Shown one piece after another: positions 2,159 through 18,773 of a stretch of 20,000 nt of DNA. The translations under genes were made by a program, and so were the position numbers. The stretch comes from an uncultured virus (IMG/VR IMGVR_UViG_3300007754_000006) (taxonomy: Duplodnaviria; Heunggongvirae; Uroviricota; Caudoviricetes). The notes beneath the pieces are model-generated. The model saw only the letters and a list, made by a program, of their open reading frames with translations. It had not been told where the DNA came from and made no database searches. The first letter of the stretch is position 1; every line of letters starts with the position of its first letter. The DNA is taken from IMG/VR virus record IMGVR_UViG_3300007754_000006, one strand, 5' to 3'.

Positions 2159-2542
2159 ATGTCTGACCAGAACATTCTCGACGAGGCCGTGGACAAGACG
2201 GAGGAGTTCGTCATCGATGCTCTGGATGGCGTCCTGGAAGAGGGTCTGGATGACCTGACCGATGACATGATCCGGGTGGTGGACGAAAACTTCGACCACC
2301 TCACAGGGAACGAGAGGGCGGACCTCGTGGCCTCTGCTGCCGCTACCTGGCTCACCACCCAAGGGGTCGCCTGGGTAGATGAGCATGAGGAGCAGGCCAA
2401 GGCATGGATCCTCTCTCGCGTCTCCATGCGGTTCGACCAGCTTCGCGAGAAGATCGATGAATGGCGAGAGGGCCGTCCCGAACGGGTCGCTTCTCGGCGG
2501 AAGAAGAGGGCTGAGCGCAAGGCCAAGCGCCGCTCCCGCTGA
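2159..2542 (+). CDS. Hypothetical protein with acidic N-terminus and basic C-terminal tail
   Basis: GGAGG at 2149-2153, ATG at 2159; MSDQNILDEAVDK...RRKKRAERKAKRRSR. Confidence 0.75.
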   Translation: MSDQNILDEAVDKTEEFVIDALDGVLEEGLDDLTDDMIRVVDENFDHLTGNERADLVASAAATWLTTQGVAWVDEHEEQAKAWILSRVSMRFDQLREKIDEWREGRPERVASRRKKRAERKAKRRSR

Positions 2543-2917
2543 CTACAGGTCGAGCTCCCTGCGGAGCTCCCTGATTGCCTTGTTCAGCTTCTTGGGGGCG
2601 TTCTCCTGGGGGGCAAAGAACACGGTTCGCTCGGCTCTATGTCCGAAAGATCTTGGGGTCCGCCAACGCATCGTCAAGTGGATGAAGAAGCCCCCCTTGG
2701 TCTCCCCCGCTTCCCCGTTGAGGTAGTAGCGGGCCCTCTGTCCGTTGGGTCTCCGGACATTGACATAAGACCAGATAGCTCGAGGGACTCGGTGGGAGAG
2801 AACCTGGAAGGAGCTCTGGTAGCCTCCGATGTGCTTCGGGTTGGCTCCGTCTATCCAACGGATGTTCCTCTCCCTGGTGAACTGGATCTCCATCCATTCC
2901 TTGGTGGTCATAGGCAT
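2543..2917 (-). CDS. Hypothetical protein
   Basis: 124-aa ORF with protein-like composition, converging on the 2542 stop. Confidence 0.65.
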   Translation of the reverse strand: MPMTTKEWMEIQFTRERNIRWIDGANPKHIGGYQSSFQVLSHRVPRAIWSYVNVRRPNGQRARYYLNGEAGETKGGFFIHLTMRWRTPRSFGHRAERTVFFAPQENAPKKLNKAIRELRRELDL

Positions 2918-3027
2918 GAGTGGATATCCATCACCACCAAGAGGGAAAGAACCAACACTGCCCCAACCAAGAGGGCCTGGAAGACGGATTCAGGCAGACG
3001 TCGGAAGATAAGGCACTCCGGGACGGA

Positions 3028-3050
3028 GGCACCTCCTGCAGGACTCGAAC
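3028..3050 (-). pseudogene. Orphan tRNA 3' fragment (T-loop plus 3' acceptor strand)
   Basis: Minus strand GTTCGAGT-CCTGC-AGGAGGT-G-CC. AGGAGGT pairs with GCCTCCT of the orphan 5' half at 3885-3891. Confidence 0.6.
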
Positions 3051-3095
3051 ACAGCCCTGGCAGGAGGCGAGCCTGCGCTCTATGAAGGAGAGGAA

Positions 3096-3173
3096 TGGCG
3101 CCTCGACCAGGACTCGAACCTGGGACCGACAGCTTAGAAGGCTGGTGTTCTAATCCAACTGAACTACCGAGGC
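3096..3173 (-). tRNA. tRNA-Arg(UCU)
   Basis: GCCTCGG TA GTTC AGTTGGATTA GAAC A CCAGC CT TCT AA GCTGT CGGTC CCAGG TTCGAGT CCTGG TCGAGGC G CCA: full cloverleaf with encoded CCA and one mismatch at the top of the anticodon stem. Confidence 0.93.
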
Positions 3174-3186
3174 ACAAAGAGGTCTC

Positions 3187-3819
3187 TCAGACAAGAGATT
3201 TTACTCTCGAGACTGTTTCCTCACTGAACGCCTTTGGGTAGTGTACTTCCAAAACCGTCCACCCTCCCTCAATCAGGAGGAGGTGACGGTTCCGATAGTA
3301 CCGCTTCAAGCGTCCAGGCTGAGTGTTGTTCGGCACCACTTCGTAGTGCTGGTTACCGTTCACCTCAATCGCGACCTTCTTGCTTGGGAAGGCAATGTCG
3401 AGAGAGAAGAACCGGTCTTTGAACGGCATGTACTCTTCCTCAAAGGTGAGCCCTTCTTCCCGGAGCCGCCTTTTGAGGTGCTCGCAGGGCACACTCACGA
3501 ACTTGTCTTTTCTTCGCCACGGGTGTTTGTCCGGGTTCTCCCGCAACCATCGAAGACGGGCGGCTGAGACCTTGTCCCGACTTTCCTGTGTCCAAACCCG
3601 GTTCCTGTTGGCTTCGGCAAGGACTTTCTTGACACTGTCCGGACACTCTGTGAGAGTTCCTGCTGTGTAGCCGTTGCGGAAGTTCTTCTTCGCGGCTCTC
3701 GCCGCCCTCAAGTTCTCGACGTACACCGAACGCTTGGGGTTTTCCGAGCACCACCGGACATGGCTTGAGAACGCCCGAGAGCGAACTCCCGGATCTTTCC
3801 TGCAATGTGGACAGAGCAT
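3187..3819 (-). CDS. Putative free-standing homing endonuclease (Zn-finger and NUMOD3-like N-terminus, Vsr/DUF559-like PD-(D/E)XK domain)
   Basis: ATG 3819 after GGAGG; CPHC...HVRWC; WTQESRDKVSAA (NUMOD3-like); FSLDIAFPSKKVAIEVNGNQHY...RHLLLIEGGWTVLEV. Confidence 0.8.
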   Translation of the reverse strand: MLCPHCRKDPGVRSRAFSSHVRWCSENPKRSVYVENLRAARAAKKNFRNGYTAGTLTECPDSVKKVLAEANRNRVWTQESRDKVSAARLRWLRENPDKHPWRRKDKFVSVPCEHLKRRLREEGLTFEEEYMPFKDRFFSLDIAFPSKKVAIEVNGNQHYEVVPNNTQPGRLKRYYRNRHLLLIEGGWTVLEVHYPKAFSEETVSRVKSLV

Positions 3820-3856
3820 TGGGCCTCCGTACCCGCAGCGAGGCATAGGGTATCTA

Positions 3857-3891
3857 AAGGCCGTTGCTCTATCCAACTGAGCTAAGGAGGC
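3857..3891 (-). pseudogene. 5' half of an argU-like tRNA-Arg, broken in the anticodon loop
   Basis: GCCTCCT TA GCTC AGTTGGATA GAGC A ACGGC CT T, with no 3' anticodon strand (GCCGT) or T-arm following. Confidence 0.8.
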
Positions 3892-3965
3892 GTGTGGTGA
3901 CGGATTCCGTTACCGTTTCAATCTTCGCCTTTGAAGCATCGGGATCTCCCTTCCGATAAGTCCTG

Positions 3966-4322
3966 CTAACCTGCCCTGCGTCGCTGAGCTCGCCATTGCT
4001 TGGGTGTAAGACCCCCGAGCTCCGGAAGGCACCACTCGCCTTGGCCTCCGAAGGTCCTCCGGCGCAGCACCTTCCCGTTGTTCCAGAGCCCCTGGAGGAC
4101 GACGTTGATCCCGGCTATCTGGCCTGTGATCTCCATCATCATTTCGGCAATGCGGTCCTCTCGGTAGGGCCAGTCCTCGTGTTGGGTCTCCCCGCTGGAG
4201 ACGTCCTGCGCGATGCCCTCTGAATAGCTGTCCTGGAGCTTCCGCCAGACACAGGCGTTGGTCCAGGCTACGTTGGGGTCTGATTGCAGGACAGCGAGGA
4301 CCAGCTCAGGAGAGGGTGTCAT
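3966..4322 (-). CDS. Hypothetical protein
   Basis: 118-aa ORF with AGGAG upstream. Confidence 0.65.
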   Translation of the reverse strand: MTPSPELVLAVLQSDPNVAWTNACVWRKLQDSYSEGIAQDVSSGETQHEDWPYREDRIAEMMMEITGQIAGINVVLQGLWNNGKVLRRRTFGGQGEWCLPELGGLTPKQWRAQRRRAG

Positions 4323-4364
4323 CAGCAGGTGCTCCTCGTAGGAGGAACAGACCCCATATCCAGG

Positions 4365-4955
4365 CTATTCCAGAGCGAGGGCTTCCTTGTAGATCCCCAC
4401 CACGGCAGCCCAGGCGTCCTTCCCGATGGAGTTCTCTGCGAGAGCAGAGAAGGCGTCCATTACCAGCAGGCTTGCGTGTCCCAGGTTCTTCCGGGTGTGG
4501 ATAATGGGAGCCTTCGGCTTGTGCATCCCTGCGTCCTGGATGTCCTGAAGCTTCTTCTCAAGGTCGGTCAGAGCTACCGGGATGTTGTTCACCGCCCGGC
4601 CAACCATCGTGGTCTCGTGGGGAGTCAGGTCCTCGAGCTCCAGGAGAGTCCCCAGGTATGTCTCAGACTTTTGGAGAAAGAGGATCCCTCGAGCTCTCTC
4701 GATCTCGATGCTCCCTCTGGTTCCAATCAGAAGAGGAACCAGAGGCGCCAGGAACTCCTGCCGGAGCGCATCCCCGGTAGGACCCAGCCCCATGTAGTCG
4801 TTCATGGAGACCCCGATGTTCGACAGTATCCAGCAGGCGCATTGGGGATAATGGGAGTGAGGCTCTCCTGCCAAGAGAGCTACAGCCTCCATGAAGCAGT
4901 ACTCCTTTTCTTGGGGGGCGTGCCCCCCAGCCTTCAGCTGGGGGATCTGGGTCAT
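4365..4955 (-). CDS. Conserved phage-type hypothetical protein (C.MEAVA..AGEPHS..P.CAC pattern)
   Basis: ATG 4955 after GGAGG and overlapping the upstream stop. LKAGGH...CFMEAVALLAGEPHSHYPQCAC...MND...LVPLLIGTR is a pattern I recall from phage/prophage proteins of unknown function. Confidence 0.75.
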   Translation of the reverse strand: MTQIPQLKAGGHAPQEKEYCFMEAVALLAGEPHSHYPQCACWILSNIGVSMNDYMGLGPTGDALRQEFLAPLVPLLIGTRGSIEIERARGILFLQKSETYLGTLLELEDLTPHETTMVGRAVNNIPVALTDLEKKLQDIQDAGMHKPKAPIIHTRKNLGHASLLVMDAFSALAENSIGKDAWAAVVGIYKEALALE

Positions 4956-7191: not shown

Positions 7192-7794
7192 CTATATAGG
7201 TGAAGTATTGGCCATCCGGACCTGGGAGTTGTGCGTGAGCTGGAAGCTCCGCTTGGTCCCATCGCGAAGGAAGTGCTGCGCTTCGTTGGCGATGTGCGCT
7301 CCCACGATGGAGTGGAACGGGAGATTCTCCCCGTCCTCGCAGGTCGGTACGTCCCCGGCCGGCTCGGTGTGTGGCGTGAAGTGCTCCGTCCACATGACCC
7401 GGGCGAAGTCCCCAGCTACCGCCAGGCCGCCATGGAGACAGGGGATCCCGTTCTCCGTGCAGAAGCCCTGGATCAGCTGCCGGGCCGCGATGTTGTCCGT
7501 GCAGTCGATGACCAGAGCGGCGCCCGCGAGCAGCTGCTGAACGTTGGCGTCCGTGAGCTTGTGGGGAACGGCCTTGACCCTCAGCCCCCACATGCCCTGG
7601 AGGATCTGGGCCATCGACTGGGCCTTGTTCCGCCGGAGGGCCTGGCGCCCGTAGGCTTGGGCCTGCGTGTTCTTGTTCTCCACGCGATCGAAGTCGATGA
7701 GGACGAGGTCGGCATCCCAGTTCCGCGCGTTCACTGCGACGGGGGATCCGATGGCACCGAGTCCGACGAGGACAACCTTGGGGCGGCGGGTCAT
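7192..7794 (-). CDS. ThiF/MoeB/E1-like adenylyltransferase
   Basis: KVVLVGLGAIGS, LIDFDRVENKN, RNKA, LVIDCTDN, a candidate catalytic Cys in PTCE; GGAG RBS. Confidence 0.9.
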   Translation of the reverse strand: MTRRPKVVLVGLGAIGSPVAVNARNWDADLVLIDFDRVENKNTQAQAYGRQALRRNKAQSMAQILQGMWGLRVKAVPHKLTDANVQQLLAGAALVIDCTDNIAARQLIQGFCTENGIPCLHGGLAVAGDFARVMWTEHFTPHTEPAGDVPTCEDGENLPFHSIVGAHIANEAQHFLRDGTKRSFQLTHNSQVRMANTSPI

Positions 7795-7826
7795 GGGTAA
7801 CTCCGAGGTTCTTCGGATGCCTCGGA

Positions 7827-8513
7827 TTACCGTGTATGACTCCACAACGTTGGGGATTCCAACTCCCGGCCCACTCCTGCTTCCATGAAGTCCTGGGTCA
7901 GGAATGTAGGGGCTGCGATGTTCTTCAGGGGCTCTCCAGGAGCCCAGCACACCTTCACCGCACGACCCCAGCTATCAAGCTCTGCAGATAGCTGTCCAAA
8001 CCCGTGGAAGAACAAGCCGACAAATGGGCGTCTGTTTATCTGGTGGCGCAGACTTCCGTAGGCGGCGACCAGGGCCCAAACCCCCAGGATGTGCCCCGGA
8101 CGGGGATTGTCCCATCGAGGCCCGTCGTCGATGGAGACTGAATGAACGATGACTGTCTCGGCCTCGTTCATGTCGAACCTACAGGTGGCTCGACCGTTCT
8201 CGTAGGGTCGACCGTACATCTGCGTTGCCTTGCGGAACCAGTTGGGGTCTCCGTCCTTCCCCGCGATCTCCTCGCCGTCTACCAAGGTCTTCCAATCACA
8301 TGTGCTGTGATGCGCCTTGAGGTAGTAGGTCCAGGAAATGGATTCCTGATGTGCGGCCTCTCCCCCCTCTCTCAGGGTGGGGTGGGAAAGGGCACTGAGC
8401 TCGAACCGGATGGCCTTGGTGGGAGTGTGCACTCGAGCGACCATTGTCCTCGGGGCGATGCCCACAAAGAAGTCTACAGCCCAATCCACTCGGCGGACAC
8501 ACACGGGGTTCAT
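7827..8513 (-). CDS. Hypothetical protein
   Basis: ATG at 8513 after GAGG; 228 aa. Confidence 0.65.
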   Translation of the reverse strand: MNPVCVRRVDWAVDFFVGIAPRTMVARVHTPTKAIRFELSALSHPTLREGGEAAHQESISWTYYLKAHHSTCDWKTLVDGEEIAGKDGDPNWFRKATQMYGRPYENGRATCRFDMNEAETVIVHSVSIDDGPRWDNPRPGHILGVWALVAAYGSLRHQINRRPFVGLFFHGFGQLSAELDSWGRAVKVCWAPGEPLKNIAAPTFLTQDFMEAGVGRELESPTLWSHTR

Positions 8514-9363: not shown

Positions 9364-9609
9364 GTCCTCTCCGGAGGCTTGCGGGCTCTCGAAGACCTTC
9401 TGGGCCAGACCCTTCGCGGGTGCTCCGGACGCAAGCTGGTATAGGGCTTCCTCGATGTTCTCCATGGTCCCCGATACGTTCAGGCCATGAGACCCCGTGT
9501 CCCCCCGACACTCCGAACAGCTACACCAAGCGATCAACCAAGAGAAGTCATCGACCAATACATCACGAAGGTCCTTCAGGCTGATGCGTGCGTCCCCGGG
9601 AGAGCTCAT
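9331..9609 (-). CDS. Hypothetical protein segment that runs in frame into the lipoprotein ORF
   Basis: ATG 9609 overlaps the pyrF TGA; CSCSEC motif; no stop before 9330. Confidence 0.5.
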
Positions 9610-10433
9610 GCGGTGACTTCTTTGGCGAAGTTGGAGGCTCGGTGGTGGACATTGGAGGCCCACTTGTCGCTGGAGGCGAAGTATTCGCTCTCGTTCCGGG
9701 GGAAGAGGATCGAGCGAGAGGCGGTGGCGATGGCTCCCCGGTATCCCTTCAGAGACACCAGGAGACGACGGAACTCCACCACGCCGGCTCCCTGCGCTCC
9801 GATCCCAGGGGCCAACAGGAGGGAGGTTCCCATCTTCTGCCGGATCTCCAGAACCTCTTCCTCGGGGAGGGTAGCGCCGACGACTGCCTGGAGGTTCTCC
9901 TGGCAGATGAAGTCCATGAGGTCATCCCGAACTGGAGACTGCCAAGAATGCGCTCCGGAGTTGGTGGTGCGGAGAAGGACGAAGATGCCCTTCCCCTTGT
10001 TGGCCCACTCGATGTAGGGGGTCAGGGACTCCGGACCCAGGAATGGGTTGACGGTGACCGCGTCCGCCCCGTAGACCTCAAAGGAGGCCCTGGCGTATGC
10101 CTCGGCGGTGGATCCGATATCCCCACGCTTCCCATCCAGGATGACCATGAATCCTCTGGACTTGGCGTACAGGCAGATCATTTTCAGGGCTGCCATGCCC
10201 TCCGGCCCGAACGCCTCGAAGAAGGCGGACTGGGGTTTGATGGCCGGCACGAGGTGATAGAGGGCGTCGATCACGTCACAGCCCCACCGGGCCAATCCGG
10301 AGGTGATCCCATCCAGCGCTATCCGGCGTTGAATATTCCGAGGAAGGAGATGGGCATGTGGGTCCAGGCCGACGCAGCAGGGGTTGCCGTACTCGCGGAC
10401 CTTTGCGTGCCAGAGGGACTTGAAGAGGGGCAT
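9606..10433 (-). CDS. pyrF: Orotidine 5'-phosphate decarboxylase (subfamily 2)
   Basis: CVGLDP, KPQSAFFE, DGKRGDIGST, VNPFLG, LRTTN, VVGAT, LLAPGIGAQG, SRSI. Confidence 0.97.
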   Translation of the reverse strand: MPLFKSLWHAKVREYGNPCCVGLDPHAHLLPRNIQRRIALDGITSGLARWGCDVIDALYHLVPAIKPQSAFFEAFGPEGMAALKMICLYAKSRGFMVILDGKRGDIGSTAEAYARASFEVYGADAVTVNPFLGPESLTPYIEWANKGKGIFVLLRTTNSGAHSWQSPVRDDLMDFICQENLQAVVGATLPEEEVLEIRQKMGTSLLLAPGIGAQGAGVVEFRRLLVSLKGYRGAIATASRSILFPRNESEYFASSDKWASNVHHRASNFAKEVTA

Positions 10434-15184: not shown

Positions 15185-15418
15185 TCAAGAAAGAGCGGCT
15201 TGGACGTAGCTGATGACGTCCCCAACTGTGAACAGGTTCTCGGCGTCCTCGTCCGAGATCTGGATCTTGAACTCGGTCTCGAGATTGATCGCCAGGTCAA
15301 CTCGGTCCAGGCTGTCCGCTCCAAGATCATCCACGAGATCCGCCCCTGGGGCTGCCTCCTCGGGGGCGACTCGGAGCAGGTGGGTGATCAGCTCTACGAC
15401 GCGGGACTCAATCTTCAC
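15185..15418 (-). CDS. acpP: Acyl carrier protein
   Basis: GTG at 15418 after GAGGGG; DDLGADSLD phosphopantetheine site, LETEFKIQISDEDAE, TVGDVISYV. Confidence 0.93.
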   Translation of the reverse strand: MKIESRVVELITHLLRVAPEEAAPGADLVDDLGADSLDRVDLAINLETEFKIQISDEDAENLFTVGDVISYVQAALS

Positions 15419-15854
15419 GGGGATTCCCCTCACAGGAGACGGCCGGAGGGCCAATGAAGAATCCCCGACCGCCGGACAGTTGGATGTGTGTGTTGGAAAC
15501 GGGGGTCTGGGCAAAGCGAACCAGGAGCCCATCCCCACCGTTCTCCCGGAGCTTGTCGTTGGTGCACCGAGTCTCCTCTCTGAAAGGGCAGTCACCGCAG
15601 ACCAGGATGAACTTGCCCGGACCTCCGCGAGACCACTGCACCTTCCTGTAGAGGCGCTCGTGCTCTGTGATGACGGGTTCACACTTCCGACACAGGAGGA
15701 CTACAGGAGCCCTGTCTGGGAAGGAGTCATCCTCATCCGCCTCGGCCCACATGTTCATTGAGCAGATGTCGTCCTTCTCTACACCGCACGCCTGGCAGAG
15801 AAGAAAGCTGTTGTCAGGGATTGGGTACGGGAGGTCTTCCGTCAGTCTTCGCAT
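15408..15854 (-). CDS. Cys-rich hypothetical protein
   Basis: CQAC, CRKC and CGDC motifs; AGGA RBS. Confidence 0.7.
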   Translation of the reverse strand: MRRLTEDLPYPIPDNSFLLCQACGVEKDDICSMNMWAEADEDDSFPDRAPVVLLCRKCEPVITEHERLYRKVQWSRGGPGKFILVCGDCPFREETRCTNDKLRENGGDGLLVRFAQTPVSNTHIQLSGGRGFFIGPPAVSCEGNPRED

Positions 15855-16056: not shown

Positions 16057-16781
16057 AGCCCCCTCCGATGTAGATCGAGGAATCCAGGATGGGGGGTCGC
16101 CATGTTCCGGACTCGAGAAGCCAGGGCTTCGACGGCGCTTCGCCGGGACTCCGGGGTTCCCTTGTCATCATCCCACGGAACATCCAGTATGGCCACCCCC
16201 CGCTTGCTCAGGACTCCGACCATGTGGTCGATCTCCCGCTCCAGTCCCTTGAGATACTCGAGGTCGATGGCCTGTTCGCACTTCCGGCCGGTCTCGAGCT
16301 CCATCCGTCGTCGGATCCGCTCGTTGCAGATCTCCGGGCGGGTCAGGATCCGCAAGCAGATGGTAGGCACCTTCACGAAAGCAGTCATGATGTCGTAGAG
16401 GTCTGCGTAGGAAGCGAACTCCCGCTCTTCCATGAGCCCCATCTGCAGCTGGAGGTGTGCGAAGGCTGTGTCTCCATAGAAGCTGCGGTCCAGGACTGCG
16501 TGACCCAAGCCTTGCATCACGAAGCTCTGGGCGTGGAGATGCATCCGGAACCGGGCCGTGAGCTGATGGGTCTGCAGGGTGTACGCCCATCGAGCGGGAT
16601 CCTCGTAGTAGTCTGCCAGGTACGGGTTCCCCCCTCCCTGGTCAGTCCCTCCCTTCTCGTCCGGCTCGAAGAGGGTCAGAGTGGTGGGGCCGAGCGCCTC
16701 CCCAAGTTCGCGTGCTAACGTGGTCTTCCCTGAGCCAATCAGACCCTCGACGATCACGACCTTGTTTTGGGAGTGCTGCAT
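16053..16781 (-). CDS. Deoxynucleoside kinase
   Basis: VEGLIGSGKTT P-loop, FEP, YEDPARWAY, LDRSFYGD, ERIRRR....GRKCE, LEYLKGL. Confidence 0.93.
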   Translation of the reverse strand: MQHSQNKVVIVEGLIGSGKTTLARELGEALGPTTLTLFEPDEKGGTDQGGGNPYLADYYEDPARWAYTLQTHQLTARFRMHLHAQSFVMQGLGHAVLDRSFYGDTAFAHLQLQMGLMEEREFASYADLYDIMTAFVKVPTICLRILTRPEICNERIRRRMELETGRKCEQAIDLEYLKGLEREIDHMVGVLSKRGVAILDVPWDDDKGTPESRRSAVEALASRVRNMATPHPGFLDLHRRGL

Positions 16782-18042
16782 GCTGTGGTTCCTTCTTCCG
16801 GACTTCGGGGTGTGGGATCTTGTTGCGGAGACAATACCTGCGAAGACGGTGCGCCAGTAGTCTTCGGTTCTCTTCGGTTGGGTCCATCCCCTTCTTGGTA
16901 CATACCTCAGCCCAACTCAGCCCCTGGCTACGGAGGGTCCACAGATCAGAGGCGTCCATCCGACCGTAGTCGTAGTGGGACCGGGCGCTCCATCCTCTCT
17001 TCTTCCATGCTGTGTATAGGGCGCTGGTGACAACCCCGAACTCAGCCGCGAGGTCCTCGGTCTTCTCCCCTTCCAAGCGTCGTCGCCAGGTATCTGCAAC
17101 ATCCTTGGGGGTCAGGATACCTTGGATACGGGGAATGTCAGTGATCAGGCCTTGGGCTCCCCATTGAGCACGGAGAGCATTGGGCGACACACCGAACTCG
17201 GCAGCCAAGTCACAGGTCTTCTCCCCTGCCTCTCTCCGGCGCCGGGATTCCTTGAGCTCCTTCATGGTCCATTGGCGACCCGGCGTGCGATTGTCTGGTC
17301 TCTTCCCGAGTAGGCGCTTCCAGGCATGGAGGAGTGCTCCAGAACTGGTTCCAAGTTCGGCCGCCAGACTCGCGGAGCTCTCCCCCTCTTGGTATCTGTC
17401 CCAAGTGGTCTGAGCCTCCTCCATGGTCCATCTCCGCTGGCCTCCCGTCTGCTTTCCCAAGTAGCGGAGCCAGGCACTGCGGAGGCTCTCGGGAGACACT
17501 CCAAGCTCCCGAGCCATATCGGAGCAGGCCTCTCCGTTCTCCCAGCGGGCCCAAGTGGTCTCGCATATCTCCAGGGACCAGGAGTACTGGTTATCTGGGC
17601 TCTTCCCCAGGTGGTACTTCCACGCAGAGCGCATGCTCTTCTGACAGACCCCGAGATCCCGCGCGATATGGCTGGACTTCTCCCCGGACACATACCGATC
17701 CCAGGTCTCCCGGGCGAGCTTCTTGGTCCAGCTGGACCACTTGATGGTGTTCTTTCCAAGGACCCGTTTCCAGGCCCTGCGGAGGGAATCAGGTGTCTCT
17801 CCGATCTCGGATGCCAACTCTGCGGGGCTCTCCCCCTTTTCGTGACGCTTCCAGAGCTCCAGACACCTTTCCTTGTTCCAGAACTTCTTGGGAAGCCCCC
17901 CGAACTCCTTCCTCCACCAGTAGTAGAGGGTCGTCACCTTCATGCCGGCTTCTCCCGCCAGCTCTTTGGTTGATTCTCGAGCTTCCCGGCGCCGATAGAG
18001 ATCCTGTAGGAACTCTCGGCTGGGCCTTGGTTTTTTGGCCAA
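16642..18042 (-). CDS. Tandem helix-turn-helix repeat protein (7-8 repeats of about 50 aa)
   Basis: Repeats W.......W.R...GE....LA.ELG.S..SLR.AW...LGK; TTG start after GGGGAG; C-terminal tail overlaps the dNK gene. Confidence 0.85.
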   Translation of the reverse strand: MAKKPRPSREFLQDLYRRREARESTKELAGEAGMKVTTLYYWWRKEFGGLPKKFWNKERCLELWKRHEKGESPAELASEIGETPDSLRRAWKRVLGKNTIKWSSWTKKLARETWDRYVSGEKSSHIARDLGVCQKSMRSAWKYHLGKSPDNQYSWSLEICETTWARWENGEACSDMARELGVSPESLRSAWLRYLGKQTGGQRRWTMEEAQTTWDRYQEGESSASLAAELGTSSGALLHAWKRLLGKRPDNRTPGRQWTMKELKESRRRREAGEKTCDLAAEFGVSPNALRAQWGAQGLITDIPRIQGILTPKDVADTWRRRLEGEKTEDLAAEFGVVTSALYTAWKKRGWSARSHYDYGRMDASDLWTLRSQGLSWAEVCTKKGMDPTEENRRLLAHRLRRYCLRNKIPHPEVRKKEPQHAALPKQGRDRRGSDWLREDHVSTRTWGGARPHHSDPLRAGREGRD

Positions 18043-18059: not shown

Positions 18060-18773
18060 CTACTGATTTTCGAAGCGTGGGTCCTTGGGTCCCTCTACCT
18101 CAGTGACCTCGATGCCTTGGTCCGTCAGGTAGTCGGCTCCATCCTTCCCGCCCAGATAACCGTCGCCGACCACGAACACCCGGGAGATCCCCGCGTGGTG
18201 TATCAGCTTGGCGCACATCATACAGGGCTCGGCCAAGACGATAAGCCAAGCACCCGTGGTCTTTATCCCCCCTGCCGCTGCGTTGCAGATGACGTTCATC
18301 TCGGCGTGGTGGCAGCCACGTTCCATCCGGGTTCCGGACTCGATGGGCGGGTGCTGTGCCACGAACTCCTGGGCCCACTCCTCCGCCTTCCTCTTGGCGT
18401 GGCCTGGCTCGAGCTTCTCGGTGATGTTGTGGAGGCTTTCCCAGTGGAGAGCCTCGCTATCCGGTACTCCCTCTGGCGACTTCGGGAACACACCCATCCC
18501 CTTTACGCTGTGCGTTCCTCCTCCTCGGAGAGGAGGGTAGGTCCAGGAAACCCGGATCTCGAGGTCGTCCATTGTGACCCCGTCCCGCTCACACCAGAAA
18601 CCTCGACAGAGCGTTCCATTGGCTCCCCGAGGACCTCCGTTGTACCCGTCGGCGAGGATCACGTTCCTCTTGGGATCCAGGAGGAGGGCTGCCAGCTTGC
18701 GACGGGGGCAATGAGAGGCGCCAGCCAAGGCCAGGCACTGCTGTATCCGGATCTCGATATGTCGTTGTTTCAT
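18060..18773 (-). CDS. dCMP deaminase with an internal insertion
   Basis: SHCPRR, GYNG, HAEMN, PCMMCAKLI. Confidence 0.93.
   Translation of the reverse strand: MKQRHIEIRIQQCLALAGASHCPRRKLAALLLDPKRNVILADGYNGGPRGANGTLCRGFWCERDGVTMDDLEIRVSWTYPPLRGGGTHSVKGMGVFPKSPEGVPDSEALHWESLHNITEKLEPGHAKRKAEEWAQEFVAQHPPIESGTRMERGCHHAEMNVICNAAAGGIKTTGAWLIVLAEPCMMCAKLIHHAGISRVFVVGDGYLGGKDGADYLTDQGIEVTEVEGPKDPRFENQ

Follow-up and report, generated by a model that had tools for sequence, protein, structure and literature searches.

Here, we describe a split tRNA-Arg(UCU) locus in a 20,000-nucleotide (nt) stretch of DNA, referred to below as the window, from an uncultured virus of the class Caudoviricetes (IMG/VR record IMGVR_UViG_3300007754_000006). 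On the minus strand, and in the direction of transcription, the locus consists of the 5' half of a tRNA-Arg(UCU) gene (the resident gene), a gene for a homing-endonuclease-like protein, a second, intact tRNA-Arg(UCU) gene, and an orphan fragment that corresponds to a tRNA 3' end (Table 1); we refer to the nuclease gene and the intact tRNA gene together as the cassette. A first-pass annotation had listed four elements here, i.e., the 5' half, the endonuclease open reading frame (ORF), the intact tRNA 13 nt behind it and the orphan, and all four lie on the minus strand where it had placed them. The 5' half comprises the 7-nt acceptor strand GCCTCCT, U8, the whole D arm, the 5-nt 5' strand of the anticodon stem and CUU. 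Its last tRNA-like bases are CCTT (3860-3857), i.e., it reaches U34, and the similarity to tRNA stops there. In an Rfam search of a stretch ending at 3857, it was recognized as a tRNA truncated at the 3' end (model positions 1-33; 19.1 bits, E 0.051). It is a dead gene piece. The 3' orphan follows the intact tRNA at a distance of 46 nt; cut out alone at 3052, it has no Rfam tRNA match and is too short to score. Between them, the two fragments lack at least tRNA positions 35-43.

The insert between the two fragments measures 806 nt. At 0.562, the G+C content of the cassette falls below that of the window (0.605), and a value this low recurs in only 3 of 699 segments of equal size taken elsewhere; the cassette is compositionally odd, and this foreign composition is supportive of an insertion. 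The nuclease frame is open from 3187 to 3876 and contains an extra ATG at 3846. The likely start is the ATG at 3819, because a GGAGG sequence lies 4 nt upstream of it and because P0001, a 90%-identical homologue encoded on another contig, begins there. The ORF, therefore, has a start and a ribosome-binding site of its own, and no self-splicing intron was found around it in the Rfam searches described below. To judge from the C-terminal residues of P0001, its frame seems to end in the same tRNA 5' end as that of the window. In many other relatives (L074, L095, L108, L022 and others), the nuclease frame overlaps the downstream tRNA by 9-14 nt, with the TAG of tRNA bases U8-A9-G10, or a codon shortly behind it, serving as its stop; the window instead has a 13-nt gap. 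A scan of 2800-4200 returned no promoter-like sites and one terminator-like site (2976-2960), which is within chance expectation. An integrase-borne island was considered as an origin of the insert and rejected, because the nuclease is the only ORF in the 806 nt and the flanking fragments, being the opposite ends of one gene, are not direct att repeats of a tRNA 3' part.

Table 1. Features of the split tRNA-Arg(UCU) locus, listed in transcript order (window coordinates)
Feature	Position	Strand	Basis and remarks
Resident tRNA-Arg(UCU) 5' half	3857..3891	-	35 nt, tRNA positions 1-34; 3'-truncated Rfam match; alignment to L110
Cassette left end and nuclease-gene leader	3820..3856	-	Shine-Dalgarno-like GGAGG at 3828-3824; tRNA similarity stops at 3857
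Homing-endonuclease-like gene	3187..3819	-	ORF, 210 residues plus stop; start set by homologue P0001
Spacer from nuclease stop codon to cassette tRNA	3174..3186	-	13 nt
Intact cassette tRNA-Arg(UCU) with encoded CCA	3096..3173	-	ARAGORN tRNA-Arg(tct); Rfam 62.6 bits
Possible resident variable loop (AGAGC) and T-stem 5' strand (GCAGG)	3072..3081	-	Tentative; GCAGG complements orphan CCTGC; geometry as in L066 versus L110
Imperfect inverted copy of the orphan 3' strands	3050..3071	-	22 nt; left arm of hairpin; splits the relic T arm
Resident tRNA-Arg(UCU) 3' orphan	3030..3049	-	T-loop, T-stem 3' strand CCTGC, acceptor strand AGGAGGT, discriminator G
Long stable hairpin around the 3' orphan	3023..3078	-	-35.9 kcal/mol

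Three results show that the 5' half and the 3' orphan are parts of what used to be one gene. First, the acceptor strand of the orphan (AGGAGGT) pairs with that of the 5' half (GCCTCCT) at seven of seven positions, with one G-U pair, and does not pair with the GCCTCGG of the intact cassette tRNA; the same preference for the first half over the intact copy had been pointed out in the first-pass annotation. Second, L110, a phage contig unrelated to the window's phage, carries an unbroken tRNA-Arg(UCU) gene to which the 5' half is identical at 32 of 34 aligned positions, with one additional indel in the D-loop. Third, the only differences from the L110 gene are at positions 3 and 4, and they are matched by complementary changes in the orphan at positions 70 and 69. 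Pairs 3-70 and 4-69 have, therefore, changed in a compensatory manner relative to L110, although the two halves lie ~800 nt apart. Altogether, the complete acceptor pairing, the identity to L110 and the two compensatory changes identify the two fragments as the remains of one former gene.

The protein encoded between them appears to be a nuclease of modular design. An AlphaFold model built on 59 sequences has a predicted local distance difference test score (pLDDT) of 90.4 and places an N-terminal C2HC zinc finger in front of a helical middle part and a C-terminal Vsr-like nuclease domain (residues about 107-210). The N-terminal Cys-x2-Cys...His-x3-Cys pattern is invariant in the family, as are D141, E152, N154, G155, H158 and Y159 among the 59 sequences, and the family shares the motif EVNGNQHY. 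When residues 107-210 were compared to known structures, the top match was the catalytic domain of I-Bth0305I (3r3p; Foldseek E 9.4e-4, probability 1.00), with Z 11.6 and a root mean square deviation (rmsd) of 3.8 over 91 aligned residues. Further structural matches were the DUF559 protein 3hrl (Z 11.2, rmsd 1.8), RAP domains (Z about 10-11) and Vsr itself (1cw0; Z 9.4). The nuclease domain is thus predicted to have a Vsr-like fold that is closest to that of the homing endonuclease I-Bth0305I. Sequence searches with the window's protein gave only weak PHROG matches. Among 10 aligned family members, weak Pfam matches were to RAP (PF08373; 9 of 10), DUF559 (PF04480; 6 of 10) and MTES_1575 (PF18741; 5 of 10), all of them Vsr-like PD-(D/E)XK families, with best E-values from 1.2e-5 to 1.6e-4, and four of these 10 members, but not the window's protein, matched NUMOD3.

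Related loci show that the arrangement is not unique to the window. Searches for relatives of the nuclease yielded 29 viral loci, 221 metagenome matches (80 of them retained) and nine matches among one genome each of 185,579 species; after 19 loci with identical nuclease DNA were dropped, 91 non-redundant loci including the window were compared. A tRNA-Arg gene adjoins the nuclease gene in 45 of the 91 loci, i.e., within 250 nt upstream on the same strand in 26, within 40 nt downstream in 17 and on both sides in two. The anticodon is UCU in 38 of these nuclease-adjacent tRNA-Arg genes. In nine further loci, a tRNA-Arg gene lies nearby in another geometry, in 18 another tRNA gene is adjacent, and in 19, several of them on short contigs, no tRNA was called within 250 nt. 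The family is common in the tRNA arrays of large phages from many habitats. All nine matches from the genome collection are on contigs of metagenome-assembled genomes (MAGs), and six of the seven scanned contain phage-like tRNA arrays; we, therefore, claim no cellular home for the family.

To find broken genes among these loci, we searched for orphan 5' halves under strict criteria, namely G10, a D stem of 4 bp, A14, GG and U33 in a place where no tRNA had been called. This search returned 13 candidate halves upstream of nuclease genes, seven of which have a downstream orphan that pairs with them at 6 or more of 7 acceptor positions. Five of these seven loci (the window, L030, L066, L068 and L108) enclose a nuclease gene together with an intact tRNA-Arg(tct) gene. 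The 5' half stops after CCTT in four of the five, and three bases later in L068. The nucleases of L030, L066, L068 and L108 are only 33-44% identical to that of the window. Other layouts also occur in the family. In L091 (308-1510), the order is 5' piece, intact tRNA-Arg, nuclease and matching 3' orphan, and in L075 (2703-3710), a tRNA-Arg is interrupted between its variable loop and T arm by the nuclease alone. In L072 (2676-2990) and L094 (2678-2985), the nuclease gene is closely preceded by tRNA-Arg-like halves with 7/7 acceptor pairing; about 250 nt without an ORF separate these halves, and no Rfam group I intron was found there at gathering score.

Two comparisons among the related loci point to mobility of the nuclease gene and the tRNA gene as one block. 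First, an alignment of L030 with L066 covers 818 nt at 88% identity. It begins immediately ahead of the tRNA 5' end and finishes exactly where the orphan does, and the flanks of the two loci could not be aligned. The broken halves of the two loci differ in a compensatory manner, with an A7-T66 pair in one and a T7-A66 pair in the other; therefore, each block sits in its own resident gene. Second, L110 comes from a relative of the phage that carries L066, and it encodes a flanking protein that is 95% identical to that of L066. The two loci align as far as the final base of the 5' half (76%), and the alignment resumes with the variable loop of the orphan (71%). At the position of the L066 cassette, L110 has one intact tRNA-Arg(tct) gene and no nuclease homologue. 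Based on this alignment, a 743-nt block with nuclease and tRNA takes the place of tRNA positions 35-43 in L066, whose dead 5' half has since acquired a change that breaks pair 3-70. L066 and L110 represent the occupied and the empty form of the site of a sister cassette.

The broken genes are also alike. One type of D arm and anticodon stem is common to the broken halves of the window, L030, L066, L108, L044 and L048. A motif describing this resident type is present in six of the 10 candidate broken 5' halves and in the unbroken L110 gene; it is present in none of the 38 intact nuclease-adjacent tRNA-Arg(tct) genes and none of the nine other tRNA-Arg(tct) genes in the same loci. The cassette tRNA of the window, likewise, has no such motif. 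This distribution is as would be expected if the motif were the target of the nuclease and the linked tRNAs were immune alleles, and it gives indirect support to the cleavage resistance that the first-pass annotation had proposed for the substitute tRNA.

Taken together, we consider it likely that the locus is a composite mobile cassette, consisting of a free-standing Vsr-like homing-endonuclease gene and its own tRNA-Arg(UCU), that lies in the anticodon loop of the phage's tRNA-Arg(UCU). The core of the first-pass interpretation, an intronless cassette of nuclease and tRNA that sits inside, and destroys, the resident tRNA-Arg, is upheld by the same layout in four other loci, by the block shared between L030 and L066 and by the comparison of L066 with L110. 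The cassette tRNA is, accordingly, the substitute gene. Because free-standing phage homing endonucleases such as SegB behave in an established manner (PMC2330249), a mechanism can be suggested. During co-infection, the nuclease would cut the common, resident-type tRNA-Arg(UCU) of a cassette-free phage near the anticodon loop. The break would then be repaired from the cassette-bearing genome, with the two tRNA ends and the flanking DNA serving as homology, a process that would insert copies of the nuclease gene and its linked tRNA after position 34 and ahead of the variable loop or T arm. Of the old gene, only the dead 5' half and the relic at the 3' end would remain. Decoding of AGA would be kept by the incoming tRNA, whose D arm and anticodon stem are unlike those of the target type and which would presumably escape cutting. 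The nuclease, which has its own ribosome-binding site, would probably be translated from a read-through transcript of the old tRNA gene.

A broader role can also be imagined, in which the cassette belongs to a world-wide, ribozyme-free element of a "replace what you break" kind. Such an element would swap tRNA-Arg(UCU) for an allele that escapes its own nuclease and possibly also the tRNA-cutting defenses of the host. The dead halves would serve as homology arms and as an expression leader, the hairpin-capped relic would be an RNA end or processing signal, and the nuclease would drive the exchange of useful tRNA alleles between phages. If so, the cassette would be more than a parasite; we see only a slim chance that this scenario is correct in full.

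Several observations weigh against the interpretation as a mobile, nuclease-driven cassette. At the level of the protein, the window's nuclease matched no Pfam family at E 1 or below, and a profile built from it and nine relatives found nothing relevant among Protein Data Bank (PDB) sequences at E 10 or below, because of which its link to the EDxHD family is one of predicted fold only. Moreover, the Asp of a stretch that reads RHD in the family is replaced by Leu in the window's protein and by Arg in P0001 and in P0003, a homologue with 53% identity. Nuclease activity is, therefore, not certain, and current activity and cleavage are presumed here. At the level of the locus, the right junction of the cassette is ambiguous and may lie between 3051 and 3050 or between 3082 and 3081. 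The resident-type motif was defined after the broken halves had been seen, and its distribution is for this reason supportive rather than proof. Among the related loci, 14 of the 19 with a downstream tRNA-Arg show no flanking halves by the strict criteria, some of their contigs being too short. No joint between 3857 and about 3050-3080, i.e., no empty-site form, was seen in the contigs of four sequencing runs, which drop rare variants. Five joints that skip 719-737 nt, with sides of 21-28 nt, were rejected as candidates for such a form; they come from intact tRNA-Arg genes of other organisms that match both pieces.

In addition, no nuclease-free or otherwise related genome of the window's phage was found in the viral, metagenome and phage collections searched. 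The 35-nt 5' half had no match in viral contigs, the gapped pattern of both halves had none in viral or metagenome contigs, the flanking proteins encoded at 3966-4322 and 2543-2917 and the ThiF-like protein encoded at 7192-7950 had no relatives among viral contigs, and in the phage genome collection only the tRNA was matched. For lack of such a relative, we infer insertion at the window's own locus by analogy with the sister cassette. Relatives with an uninterrupted tRNA, which the first-pass annotation had expected at this locus, thus exist for the sister cassette in the form of L110 and were not found for the window's own phage.

Some of these points fit with a fossil of the same origin, i.e., a cassette that entered long ago, whose nuclease is now inactive or has no target and whose locus is inherited vertically. 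The replaced Asp in the window's protein and its two closest homologues, the remodeling of the 3' relic by the 22-nt inverted-copy insert and the absence of an empty-site form from the contigs of the four runs would all be expected of such a remnant. Nevertheless, the frame of 210 codons is open and has kept the invariant residues D141, E152, N154 and H158, a 90%-identical homologue exists on another contig, and the 5' half still matches a working tRNA at 32 of 34 positions. We, therefore, regard a fossil as unlikely.

The three remaining explanations are each contradicted by specific results. The nested order could have arisen by chance, if two tRNA-Arg(UCU) genes had undergone unrelated rearrangements and a nuclease gene had inserted separately. 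Tandem tRNA-Arg(tct) genes do exist beside such nucleases (L018 and L088), and the family has many other layouts with tRNA-Arg. However, the halves of the outer gene enclose the inner tRNA, and the left break after CCTT recurs in four of five nested loci. Also, the tRNA is inside the inserted block when L066 is compared to L110, and the whole block is common to L030 and L066 in unrelated flanks. A coincidence of this kind is, in our view, very improbable. Even less credit is due to an intron or a split tRNA, in which the 5' half and the orphan would be joined as RNA, either by a group I intron carrying the nuclease ORF or in trans. The break falls in the anticodon loop, and the invasion of tRNA genes by group I introns is known, as described in the available text of PMC3984707. 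However, Intron_gpI and other ribozymes were searched for without a match, at E 10 or below across 2700-4200 and at gathering score across the window, and no Intron_gpI turned up in 18 related loci; the joined pieces would lack the last two anticodon bases and the 3' strand of the anticodon stem; and a complete tRNA gene lies inside the putative intron.

The assembly was assessed in metagenome data. The stretch occurs in six marine or seawater runs from two studies, possibly its source samples, and contigs of four of these runs were examined. In all four, two contigs of the unitig type cover 2300-3887 and 3858-4600 with no differences from the window and with matching depths (41.4/42.3, 18.4/17.9, 11.2/9.06 and 15.5/14.5). 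The contigs break within the 5' half, at 3858-3887, because tRNA-Arg(UCU) genes of other organisms share the words found there. These genes continue past CCTT with the missing bases of the anticodon loop and stem and, therefore, show the former shape of the broken gene. Split-tRNA loci of this kind will, for the same reason as here, often be fragmented or lost in assemblies. That the 5' half and its upstream flank come from another genome and were joined to the rest via shared tRNA words, as the break in all four runs might suggest, is the least credible explanation and can be dismissed, as the depths of the two contigs match in every run, the first four acceptor bases belong to the upstream contig alone and nevertheless find their pairing partners in the orphan, which is on the other contig, and the break after CCTT lies within the nuclease-side contig.

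The 3' relic is more than a simple remnant. The 76 nt downstream of the intact tRNA fold as a long hairpin with z -4.08, and none of 200 shuffled sequences was as stable. Its right arm is formed by the 3' orphan and its left arm (3071-3050) by a copy of the orphan that is inverted and imperfect. Just ahead of the left arm, GCAGG (3076-3072) is the exact partner of the T-stem strand CCTGC of the orphan and may be the displaced 5' strand of its T stem. In that case, the resident variable loop and T arm would resume at ~3081, the right boundary would lie between 3082 and 3081 as in L066, and the T-loop would contain the inverted copy as a 22-nt insert; a boundary between 3051 and 3050 is the alternative. 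The orphans of L030 and L066 are likewise preceded by a strand that is able to pair with the acceptor strand of the orphan. The hairpin could be a scar of repair or a selected RNA end.

Four known systems bear comparison with the cassette. The first-pass annotation had drawn a parallel to SegB of phage T4, a free-standing GIY-YIG homing endonuclease in a tRNA cluster, whose target lies inside tRNA genes and which brings about its own preferential inheritance and the co-conversion of neighboring tRNA genes in mixed infection, according to the available text of the SegB report (PMC2330249). The same text describes SegB as recognizing a T-loop motif, cutting the 3' end of many tRNA genes and residing between genes. 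The parallel holds insofar as the window's nuclease is also free-standing among phage tRNA genes. It does not extend to the fold, which is Vsr-like in the model; neither the window's nuclease nor its relatives matched the GIY-YIG family in domain searches. Further, unlike SegB as described there, the window's nuclease is tied to tRNA-Arg, sits inside a tRNA gene, in its anticodon loop, and brings a whole substitute tRNA. I-Bth0305I, the namesake of the closest structural match, represents the EDxHD family and, as far as the accessible text of its description goes (PMC3239194; PDB 3r3p), has a C-terminal Vsr-like domain and is phage-borne; free-standing family members are mentioned, and I-Bth0305I itself sits in a group I intron of recA. 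The window's protein shares with it the C-terminal, Vsr-like nuclease domain behind an N-terminal DNA-binding part and the location in a phage. By contrast, there is no sequence-level match between them, and the window's family has the C2HC zinc finger and the EVNGNQHY motif. Group I introns in tRNA anticodon loops, as covered in the available text of PMC3984707, resemble the cassette in the place of insertion and the association with a homing nuclease; they differ in that no ribozyme was detected in the cassette, its flanking "exons" cannot make a tRNA, and function is rescued by a second gene and not by splicing.

The closest known logic is that of the mobile endonuclease ORFs (mORFs) of fungal mitochondria. 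In the available text of PMC3630166, these are described as hybrids of atp6, atp9, cox2 and nad3 in Glomus and of atp6 in Allomyces macrogynus, in which an intronless endonuclease ORF in a needed gene is accompanied by a foreign copy of the displaced part and by a native relic, as in the cassette. According to the same text, mORFs replace only the C-terminal coding part, encode LAGLIDADG or GIY-YIG enzymes and are mitochondrial, whereas the cassette supplies a complete RNA gene, leaves both ends of the old gene dead and is hosted by a phage. The likeness is one of working and not of common descent. Two further reports, PMC13060386 and PMC3670811, were considered as candidates for a design of this kind and proved unrelated, as far as their available text allows. 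In the literature searched, subscription journals being outside its coverage, we found no description of a nuclease gene and a whole substitute tRNA inside a tRNA gene, nor of the spare-copy route for tRNA genes or for phages in general.

The significance of the locus lies in the way in which a needed gene is entered. As a rule, homing endonucleases enter such genes only under the cover of a self-splicing intron or an intein. The cassette would instead bring a spare copy of the gene that it destroys, a route that the available text of PMC3630166 documents for fungal mitochondrial protein genes. The nuclease family could, in this way, explain much of the turnover, duplication and debris around phage tRNA-Arg genes, and it offers a long, conserved and easily assayed natural target. 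For genome annotation, it would follow that tRNA "fragments" beside small nuclease genes are scars of such events and not noise.

The surroundings of the locus are those of a phage. The window has a G+C content of about 60% and scattered tRNA genes, and it encodes a dCMP deaminase, a deoxynucleoside kinase, an OMP decarboxylase, a ThiF-like protein, an acyl carrier protein and an HNH nuclease, which is the gene make-up of a large phage. The genes for the ThiF-like protein (7192-7950), the OMP decarboxylase (9606-10433) and the acyl carrier protein (15185-15682, minus strand) are auxiliary metabolic genes in a phage-like context. Another selfish insert may be the gene at 16642-18042 (minus strand), which separates the genes for the deoxynucleoside kinase and the dCMP deaminase and encodes a protein of 466 residues with many helix-turn-helix repeats and weak matches to a PHROG "HNH endonuclease" and to transposase-type helix-turn-helix domains. 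In the adjacent dCMP deaminase-like ORF (18060-18773, minus strand), the Pfam match covers only residues 148-201, and the first ~145 residues are unmatched. The HNH endonuclease gene at 755-1450 is on the plus strand, while all other family-matched ORFs of the window are on the minus strand.

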